Below are positions 42,533 through 44,592 of a DNA stretch of 60,000 nt, in pieces. The first letter of the stretch is position 1, and the number at the start of each line of letters is the position of its first letter. Made by a program: the position numbers and the translations under genes. The stretch lies in the NCBI GenBank assembly GCA_964187785.1, contig OZ076409.1, forward strand, positions 63,986,001 through 64,046,000. The letters are read 5' to 3'. A model generated the notes under the pieces. The model was not told the DNA's origin, made no database searches, and worked only from the letters and a program-made list of their open reading frames with translations. This stretch comes from Amphiscolops sp. MND2022. Lineage: Eukaryota.

Positions 42533-43901
42533 AGAAACGGTTCCGAATTAACAATATATTGATCAATACGGATATAACAGCGGTGCCGTTTGTAGATTAA
42601 ACATAACTAGAGCAAAGTGAAAGGAATTAATGATTTCCCCAACGGGATAACACTATTTATACCTTTTAGGGAATGACAATCACATTCCTTACATAGCTAG
42701 TTAGGTTGGTAGTATCATATGATCATTAGCTCCATGATGAAAACCCTGATATTCACATATCTTCGGGGACATCTAAGGAATGGCATTTATGGGTCATGTA
42801 GTCCAAATAGTAGCTTCAAACGAACTGCCGATTAAGGCATGCATATCAAAGTGTCAACAAATACCTTTGTTTACATACCTCACGCAAAGTGAGGTGGAGG
42901 CACGTGCCGACACAAGATTTATTATATAATACACTGAGAATGGAATGTATAACCGCACATATGGTCTGTGGTATCAATCTACTATTCATGAAAATACATT
43001 TCATGTTGAAGCCGGAATAGGCTTAAATCCATAAGTACAGACAGCACAATAGGGAAGTGAAGGAAAACGGCCTTATTTGTCCATTTTACATATGCTTGGA
43101 TCACGTAGATAATATAATATCATAAGCACCTTCATCTGCTTCGGAGATGAACTTATGCTAGTTCCGGGTTAATATCTGGTTAACTGAACAACAAAACACT
43201 AATATGCATGAAATGGCCACAATCGGCCATTTGACCAAAGTACCAGTTGAAACAATATATATTAGTTCAATGGGCCTTACTCGGCCAAATACTAAACAAA
43301 GCTTCATATTATCAACAATGAACATTTAAACAACATGAAAGAACAATTGTATTATTACTAATGAAGTACAGATGTAATAAGTTAGTTCCTTTTCATTATT
43401 GCTTCACGGCCGGAACCGGCCGTTTGACCAAGGTAGTGAGCAATGAGAGTGGAATTTCGTCTGGTGGCCTTAACCGGCCAATTAACAAATACAACAATAG
43501 TATAGCAAGAATTACAGCACGTGATTGGCTAATTGTAGTAAGCTCAAGTGACGTCCCCGGAACTGGAGTGACGTTTACTTGAACTCGTTTCCTTTACGCT
43601 CGTTAGCTGCTTCTATCTATTACTCCAATTGCATTGTTGTACTGCGTTTCCAAATTTTGCAAATAACTACACATCATTTGAGCCTTTTGATTGTTGGCCC
43701 TAACAGACTAATACTAGCAAAACATATATATATATATATAAATGAAGTCAGCAACATTAACAAGTGTAGTTAACGGAACAATATGAAAGTTTGCATTTTA
43801 GATGTTTTCTCTTCAGTAAATTGGTAAAGTTCCGGTCGCGATCTCTTGCCCTTCCGCTGTTGTCGTGATCTTAGTGCCATCACAGGCGGCAGCCTGCGAC
43901 A
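41965..43901 (-). repeat. 3' LTR of element 2
   Basis: Direct repeat of 56389-58325; minus strand TGTCGCAGG...TTCAAGACA. Confidence 0.96.
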
Positions 43902-44592
43902 CTGCGGGTGTTAGGAAAAGCAAACTACCTGCATTTAAACCATTAGAGTATGCTTCTCGTCGCAATGCGGTGATATAGGCTGGTTCACTCTTGGGCGTCG
44001 ATCTCTCCATATACCAGTTGATCTTTTCCTCTTTTATCTGCTCTCTCGATTTACCACATACCATACAGCCCGTGTGTAGACTTTCGCTGACGTCCTGGTA
44101 AGGCTTGATATTCTGCACATGGTACGAGGCATAGAAGGTCCCTGAGGTCGACTGTACAGGAGGGGTATCAATACTTGGTCCCCTCTCGTGGTCAGGAGGA
44201 GATAATGGAGATTCCAAAACAGGTAAAACAGTAGTGCAGAGCTCAACCCTCGTCTTCTTCTGCCTTTTGGACGGCGCTAGACACATTTCTCTGTTGAAGT
44301 ATTCAAGTCCCAATTTCGGGGTAGAAGGCGGAACAGGCTGAATGTAGCTGGGTCCTGCTGCCATTTCGTCATCTGAGCTTTCTATTGTCATCCCACGTCC
44401 GGCAATAGGGATTGGTACCGCTTTAACCTCCCGTTCGATCCTGTCTATTATAGCCTCCGTATCAGTAGACCAGTCTGAGTCCCAATCGCTTGAAACCTCG
44501 TTCTCACTGTCGCTGGATATATAGATTATCGAATTTGCTGAACTTTCTTCTTCAAAGTCGAAGAGCTTCTTGGTTAAGTTATATCTTTGCAT
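43813..44592 (-). CDS. 259-aa accessory protein of element 2 (acidic N-terminus, H-x2-CxxC motif); last ~29 codons lie in the LTR
   Basis: Intact ATG-to-stop ORF. The C-terminal SQAAACDG...GTLPIY is conserved as SQTAACDG...GTLPL in the solo LTR at 29188-29277. Confidence 0.8.
   Translation of the reverse strand: MQRYNLTKKLFDFEEESSANSIIYISSDSENEVSSDWDSDWSTDTEAIIDRIEREVKAVPIPIAGRGMTIESSDDEMAAGPSYIQPVPPSTPKLGLEYFNREMCLAPSKRQKKTRVELCTTVLPVLESPLSPPDHERGPSIDTPPVQSTSGTFYASYHVQNIKPYQDVSESLHTGCMVCGKSREQIKEEKINWYMERSTPKSEPAYITALRREAYSNGLNAGSLLFLTPAVSQAAACDGTKITTTAEGQEIATGTLPIY

Follow-up and report, generated by a model that had tools for sequence, protein, structure and literature searches.

A 16,361-bp Ty3/gypsy-type LTR element, located on the minus strand (58325 to 41965) of the analyzed stretch of 60,000 nucleotides (hereafter, the window), was found to belong to a lineage that appears to have given up the polypurine tract (PPT) next to its 3' LTR. 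Judged from the junctions available, this lineage keeps at best a short G-rich remnant of 4-8 nt in distant subfamilies, and the clade of the window element keeps none. We tentatively propose that a conserved stem-loop, which opens with the first U3 base and may be recognized by the protein of the overlapping gene, replaces the PPT altogether and would define the plus-strand start, in a lineage also carrying a spliced antisense gene of putative hAT-transposase origin. The protein collection holds over 1,700 accessory-gene copies of this PPT-less lineage.

The element is bounded by direct LTRs with TG...CA ends, as is canonical for Ty3/gypsy elements. The 5' LTR (56389..58325, minus strand, 1,937 bp, TGTC...GACA) and the 3' LTR (41965..43901, minus strand, 1,937 bp) both start with TGTCG and end with GACA, and 12 differences separate them. 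A 5-bp target-site duplication (TSD), AAAAT, is present on both sides (left copy, 58326..58330; right copy, 41960..41964; both minus strand), within the 4-6 bp expected of Ty3/gypsy. Thus, the near-identical LTRs (99.4% over 1,937 bp) and the perfect TSD described in the initial annotation were confirmed. TGG directly adjoins the 5' LTR end and opens a probable primer-binding site (PBS; 56377..56388, minus strand) inside the gag reading frame; the window has no tRNA gene to compare with this candidate. The gag gene (55241..56956, minus strand), which shows a weak CCHC knuckle and a DUF1759 match, starts inside the LTR, and about 188 of its codons are repeated in the 3' LTR. Its ATG is at LTR nt 1370, 129 nt after a TATA box (TATAAA, LTR nt 1241). 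The gag start (56956) was also seen to lie 568 nt before the LTR end, with a frame that reads through the U5/PBS junction (56956-56377, minus strand). Both LTR junctions of the element are coding, with gag at the end of the 5' LTR and an accessory ORF at the start of the 3' LTR.

According to Pfam, the pol gene (50064..55240, minus strand) encodes protease, a weak dUTPase-like segment, RT, RNase H, and integrase, and the order PR-RT-RNase H-IN is that of Ty3/gypsy. RT carries YVDD, and the catalytic motifs of RNase H and integrase were located as well. The best PDB match of RT is Ty3 RT (E 2.6e-27, 99.1 bits), with an alignment that takes in the acidic residues of RNase H; the score of a caulimovirus-type enzymatic polyprotein is nearly equal (98.2 bits). 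The dUTPase-like match (PF00692, E 0.066) lies between protease and RT at about 53970-54215 (minus strand), and one RT homolog, P0307, bears a precomputed PF00692 hit. In this copy, pol falls into six reading segments, with two in-frame stops and three frame changes; gag-pol is broken in five places and the window copy is dead. Between integrase and the 3' LTR there are 6,162 bp with two accessory genes. By its layout, the element appears to work like a Ty3/gypsy retrotransposon, and its failure to show a PPT makes it a Ty3/gypsy-like variant rather than a canonical member.

The sense accessory ORF (43813..44592, minus strand, 259 aa) is present and crosses the 3' LTR start, as had been claimed. 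It comprises an acidic disordered N-terminus, a CxxC motif, a helical hairpin, and 29 C-terminal codons inside the LTR, whose first base falls on the second position of codon 231. Upstream of the 3' LTR, the sense strand reads as originally quoted, without a PPT: the number of purines is 5 in the last 10 nt, 6 in the last 15, 7 in the last 20, and 12 in the last 30. At the expected PPT position (43902..43919, minus strand), a T4 run at -18..-15 is followed by 14 C/A-rich nt ending in GCAG. No PPT was found next to the 3' LTR under the 8-49 nt criterion given in the available text of PMC7264820. The nearest all-purine run of at least 11 nt is a coding 14-nt run (44022..44035, minus strand) that ends 121 nt before the LTR and is not conserved across the family. 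Two other elements of the same window, element B (3698-12103) and element C (about 22948-28740), have ordinary PPTs with 12/15 purines each; therefore, the lack of a PPT is not a general trait of the host DNA.

Several further features of these neighbors were recorded. Element B (plus strand) has 1,931-bp LTRs (99.6% identical), gag, protease, and a weak Macro-domain hit (E 0.0065); neither an RT or integrase ORF nor a TSD was seen in it. Its 5' LTR is without the first 8 nt, and its TG was placed 8 nt before LTR identity begins. Element C (plus strand) is old and decayed, with LTRs of about 190 bp that are 82% alike. In addition, a tandem array of diverged units, each about 180 bp long, occupies 15384-16865, and related inverted pieces occur near 19870-20340.

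Homologs of the sense ORF are abundant. A total of 197 clusters at 90% identity were identified; among the clusters listed (at least 120), identity to the sense ORF ranges from 52 to 95% and member sequences number 1,770. A profile search yielded 366 representatives, including full-length proteins that are about 27-33% identical. Because an in-frame purine tract can encode only K, E, R, or G, these proteins place a bound on the junction DNA. Among 386 proteins examined, 241 were distinct and had the junction motif together with enough upstream sequence, the rest being duplicates, fragments, or motif-less. For a purine run ending no more than 3 nt from the TG, the codons permit a maximum length of 2 nt in 196 of the 241, 3-6 nt in 13, and 7-8 nt in 32; the 8-nt bound is reached in 25 homologs and never exceeded. 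These 241 homologs are not independent samples, many probably coming from one assembly, and junction DNA comes from three sequences (the window and loci L003 and L004), the bound being computed from protein elsewhere. Before the TG, L003 has 7 purines plus a C, and L004 has 5 purines. Clusters whose representative has Pro-Ala before the TG hold 1,704 of 1,730 members (only representatives were read); in a 32-row tree the Pro-Ala rows form one clade (100/99), and 15 of the 17 other rows have Gly at this place. Thus, the search for a normal PPT in other copies, which the initial annotation had named as a possible refutation, returned none, both under the protein-level bound and in the DNA of L003 and L004. 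The short G-rich remnant of distant relatives had escaped that annotation.

The DNA loci were obtained by a motif scan that returned no viral, four metagenome, and two prokaryote-genome loci, from which L002-L004 were retained; L001, L005, and L006 were discarded as chance matches, with no homology and with differing silent sites. Locus searches with protein patterns gave no confirmed locus among 63 metagenome and 47 viral pattern matches.

It had also been considered that the true LTR boundary might lie elsewhere, and this could be dismissed: the same TG opens three LTRs whose upstream DNA is unrelated. They are the 5' LTR with its TSD, a solo LTR of a distant subfamily (29186..30800, plus strand), and metagenome locus L002, where only 38 nt of LTR are left at the contig end. 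The solo LTR (1,615 bp, TGTCG...CGACA) has a near-perfect 5-bp TSD (AATTA/ACTTA), agrees with the 16.4-kb element in 21 of its first 25 nt, contains a relic of the accessory ORF C-terminus, and shows a gag-like start at LTR nt 1041, a layout as in the LTR of the 16.4-kb element. At the protein level, 225 of the 241 proteins have V over the LTR TG, 14 have L, 2 have M, and none has I, as results from a TG fixed at codon positions 2-3. Among the other Val-rich columns of the distant alignment, 11 of 13 admit Ile; Ile-free Val columns occur elsewhere (V56 in near homologs and two columns in the distant set), and the absence of Ile is a good but not absolute test of a fixed TG. Taken together, these sequence comparisons demonstrate an LTR edge that is fixed at the same TG throughout the lineage. 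In L002 (614-4254, minus strand), the LTR start lies just upstream of ORFs of 251 and 967 aa that are LINE-like by eye. The junction, CAG/TG, was also considered as a splice acceptor and rejected, L003 having AC before the TG.

The first 25 nt of the LTR are conserved at the level of nucleotides. The window matches both L003 and L004 at 24 of these 25 positions, whereas the ORF is only 32% and 38% identical in its aligned parts, respectively, and flanking identity drops to 13-15/30 in two upstream blocks and 5-8/21 just downstream. Identical residues are encoded by identical codons in 6 of 7 cases within the block, compared to 5 of 19 and 4 of 17 upstream of it (p 0.021 and 0.009 by Fisher test). 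This conservation of silent positions indicates that the block is constrained as nucleic acid. A hairpin with a 10-bp stem and a TGCC loop can be drawn at LTR nt 1-24 (43878..43901, minus strand; repeated at 58302-58325), in which nt 1 pairs with nt 24, so that the base of the hairpin is the LTR edge. As far as nucleotide comparison can establish it, LTR nt 1-25 are thus conserved beyond coding need and are able to form a hairpin with its base at the edge; this nucleotide-level feature was missed by the initial annotation.

Across six LTR starts (two of which are the twin LTRs of the window element), the TGCC loop is invariant; the stem is fully paired (10 of 10) in five, and the solo LTR retains 9 of the 10 pairs. 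Four stem sites vary: three alternate between G-C and G-U, two of these wobbles being the only change that the codons allow, and one breaks a pair in the solo LTR; no two-sided compensatory change was observed among the six starts. RNA folding of four 35-nt junctions gave z = -2.0 to -4.9. With 111 nt, only L003 was significant (z -3.9; window, -1.3; L004, -0.6). These data suggest, short of proof, an RNA hairpin at LTR nt 1-24, and a palindromic DNA site fits too. A minus-strand DNA hairpin was rejected as the signal, its folding being weaker and significant only in L003. Between subfamilies, the left LTR end is conserved at 21 of 25 positions vs 12 of 25 at the right end. Pairing of LTR nt 1-25 with the rest of the element reached 9 nt at best, which is chance level, and three Rfam matches were all far below threshold.

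LTR elements need a precise plus-strand start for integrable ends. Given a missing PPT and a fixed TG, the non-canonical plus-strand priming put forward in the initial annotation follows from established replication logic, although it is a deduction rather than an observation. It seems quite possible, if still short of probable, that RNase H of the element still cuts an RNA primer at the LTR edge and that this cut is positioned by structure rather than by purines. The accessory gene would have come to overlie the plus-strand primer site, whose purine tract would have been lost. After minus-strand synthesis, the self-complementary U3 RNA would leave the hybrid by folding on itself, and a short GC-rich piece adjoining the edge on its upstream side, after a T-rich stretch at about -15, would stay paired and prime. 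The U3 hairpin would mark the primer 3' end, RNase H leaving an RNA primer that ends at the LTR edge; the linear DNA would then receive exact TG...CA ends and integrase could insert it normally. A 24-bp RNA/DNA hybrid is expected to be more stable than the hairpin, which counts against a hairpin-set cut. In the three DNA junctions, 7-9 of the last 10 nt before the TG are G or C. A conserved Phe/Leu codon accounts for the T-run, whose position in L003 is shifted upstream by 4-5 nt. RNase H of Ty3 is redirected in its cleavage where pairing is locally lost (available text of PMC5371799). PPTs are described as having no common consensus, a PPT and its own RT fitting each other and co-evolving (PMC3185511, as far as its text is available), and T-rich boxes upstream of the PPT matter for priming in several elements (excerpts of PMC10085805). 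For HIV-1, PPT mutants are described as giving 1-LTR circles and no detectable integration (available text of PMC13332604). A second tRNA as plus-strand primer was rejected, none of the three DNA junctions ending in CCA.

Other explanations have to be weighed against a structure-positioned cut. That the junction is an artefact of a decayed copy, a misassembly, or a misplaced boundary would agree with a pol gene broken in five places, but it is very unlikely indeed and largely refuted: the Pro-Ala clusters with 1,704 of 1,730 members in one clade (100/99) and the three agreeing LTR starts with unrelated flanks counter it. The main rival, rather unlikely but by no means negligible, is that an RNase H-cut primer at the edge is set only by the upstream 14-18 nt (the T-run plus the GC-rich 3' end) with a co-evolved RT, and that the 25 nt are a DNA site (an integrase attachment or palindromic protein-binding site) or an RNA signal unrelated to priming. 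The geometry matches a U-box plus about 14 nt (PMC13332604 and PMC10085805, in the text available), the 7-9 G/C among the last 10 nt of the three DNA junctions fit it, PPTs without a common consensus that co-evolve with RT (PMC3185511, available text) would allow it, and a 10-bp inverted repeat with a 4-bp spacer suits a dimeric DNA-binding protein. However, the upstream 30 nt are merely 14-15/30 identical between subfamilies vs 24/25 on the LTR side, and an integrase site would be expected at both ends, whereas the inverted repeats at the termini measure just 4-5 bp and conservation at the right end is low. Alternatively, the plus strand could start upstream, for instance at the 14-nt purine run at -121, with integrase or circle-junction cutting trimming it to the TG and the 25-nt element serving as recognition site. 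The window does contain such a run and the conserved 25 nt would make a good cleavage signal, but we consider this improbable: aligned codons leave room for at least 13 nt in no more than 51 of 189 near proteins and in none of the 43 distant ones, purine runs near that position reach just 7-8 nt in L003 and L004, and the HIV-1 PPT mutants yield 1-LTR circles without detectable integration (PMC13332604, in its available text).

Two further readings are both quite improbable in our judgment. In one of them, the primer lies inside the LTR: hairpin RNA of nt 1-25 would survive RNase H, re-anneal, and prime, and DNA would replace the RNA after integration. It would explain why the conserved block is found on the LTR side of the edge and stops at about nt 25, but a precise cut at the edge would still be needed, and a hepadnavirus-like capped primer would need transcription from LTR nt 1, whereas the TATA box 123-129 nt before the gag ATG in both LTR subfamilies points to a start about 1.2 kb into the LTR. 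In the other, the accessory ORF (or antisense) protein would bind the hairpin and position or supply the primer, initiation being de novo or protein-primed, for example. Every motif-bearing subfamily has conserved the ORF, with near-invariant Cys, His, and Y194, and gene and signal overlap; the likeness to hepadnaviruses, which prime with RT, a stem-loop, and a terminal protein, was also counted in its favor. Against this, no primase, nuclease, or terminal-protein fold was found in the (low-confidence) models, the acidic disordered N-terminus with a basic patch is more like a transcription or RNA regulator, and Y194 is replaced in 2 of 20 distant rows.

The protein itself offers few hints. Its N-terminus is predicted to be disordered, with 40% D/E/S in the first 75 residues, and a basic patch is present. 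Conserved residues are C119, H158, C176, C179, Y194, and C237. The previously noted H-x2-CxxC motif is there in the sequence, with conserved C176 and C179, but most homologs lack its His (H173), which occurs in 20 of 111 near and 2 of 20 distant proteins. The description of the ORF as non-env is supported by a best 19-residue Kyte-Doolittle mean of 1.18, an acidic N-terminus, and no Pfam hit. No Pfam family was assigned to the ORF and only two sub-threshold hits arose among 9 homologs; the best Atlas score was 0.81 and the best E value of a PDB profile search was 0.59. The structure prediction and fold search that had been suggested were run on the ORF. AlphaFold models (mean pLDDT 52.5 and 64.6) contain a confident helical hairpin after the CxxC, at about residues 183-221 (pLDDT about 90-96 over ~184-213), but the fold search gave best Z values of only 5.1 and 4.7 and no Foldseek hit with E <= 0.001. 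With models of this kind, an absent fold match does not show that the fold is new. By analogy with retroviral accessory proteins, the odds seem about even that the ORF product is a small nuclear regulator that binds zinc and is made from an internal promoter; that it acts directly in priming appears less likely than such a role, and for the suggested involvement of the protein in priming we found nothing beyond its overlap with the junction.

The second accessory gene, also missed by the initial annotation, is an antisense multi-exon gene (45631..49831, plus strand) with a low-complexity N-terminus, a Cys/His finger, and a hAT-transposase-like C-terminal lead. Its first intron (47608-47678) is GT-AG and in frame. 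A spacer of 1,038 bp (44593..45630), probably an internal promoter, separates the two divergent accessory genes. Upstream of the accessory ORF, the window spacer (44918-44930 region, approximate) and L004 share an identical stretch of 13 nt (E 0.016 in a small search), possibly a promoter element. The first exon has 184 homologous clusters, and among those listed (at least 120) there are 1,705 members with 61-98% identity. Since these numbers are similar to those of the sense ORF, both genes may travel with the element, which the counts suggest rather than prove. The C-terminal part scored 0.90-0.91 to hAT/FAM200-type clusters by language-model features in Atlas, a lead whose recognition value (1838 < 2300) and shared features (119-140/256) are below the usual same-family level. 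Pfam and PDB sequence searches of the antisense ORFs gave no hAT or other hit. Around the cassette, no terminal inverted repeat (TIR) with an 8-bp TSD was detected beyond one 12-nt inverted pair (92%), and these features thus give no sign of a nested hAT DNA transposon. This pair (44698-44709 and 50043-50054) has unlike flanks, brackets the antisense cassette, and may be a chance occurrence or a regulatory site. TRP28 (PF04195) gave no hit in three antisense ORFs or in 7 first-exon homologs.

In accounts of LTR-element and retrovirus replication, the PPT figures as an invariable component, and how RT chooses it is described as still unsettled (available text of PMC3185511 and PMC5371799). It is worth noting that engineered or drug-selected loss of the HIV PPT stops integration (PMC13332604, available text), whereas the present lineage is naturally PPT-less and integrates with exact ends. 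Its graded junctions, from a 7-8 nt G-rich remnant down to none, form a substrate series on what sets the plus-strand cut. If our proposal is true, exact LTR ends would be made in a second way, by means of the stem-loop. In addition, such families would be overlooked or wrongly delimited by annotation tools for which a PPT is obligatory. Exact-phrase literature searches retrieved no LTR family without a PPT and none with a hAT-like antisense gene, which is weak evidence of novelty, and a PPT-less family may already be catalogued without comment. One hit for 'atypical PPT' (bioRxiv 2025.08.15.670264) was set aside as irrelevant, the text available being concerned with intron 3' ends.

Several known systems share parts of this organization. 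The resemblance to hAT transposases (PF05699, FAM200/GTF2IRD2-like) consists of the 0.90-0.91 language-model similarity of the C-terminal antisense ORF. Upstream in the antisense gene, the Cys/His finger has what we take to be a BED-like pattern. The antisense ORF differs from hAT in having no Pfam or PDB sequence hit, and its cassette is without TIR plus TSD. In HIV-1, nef overlaps the 3' PPT. HIV-1 is thus similar in that its accessory ORF extends across the site of plus-strand priming into U3. Also shared is a T-rich box about 15 nt upstream (available text of PMC13332604). HIV-1 differs in that 15 purines are kept inside the ORF and PPT mutants stop integrating (same source), whereas the window family has 2-8 purines and exact, TSD-flanked insertions. 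Retand/Tat elements, of which Retand is described from flowering plants only in the available text of PMC11963269 and PMC7264820, have a pol-to-3' LTR distance of 2.9-6.6 kb (6.2 kb here) and likewise a conserved antisense gene with a transposase-related lead (excerpts of the same two sources). Unlike them, the window element has no TRP28 (PF04195), its antisense gene is spliced and hAT-like, and its sense ORF crosses the LTR. Ty3 of S. cerevisiae shares the TG...CA LTRs, the 5-bp TSD, the TGG after the 5' LTR, and the PR-RT-RNase H-IN order. The Ty3 PPT comprises 12 purines (PMC5371799, available text), whereas the window element has none and, in further distinction from Ty3, possesses a U3-edge hairpin, both LTR junctions inside ORFs, and a two-gene accessory region of 6,162 bp.
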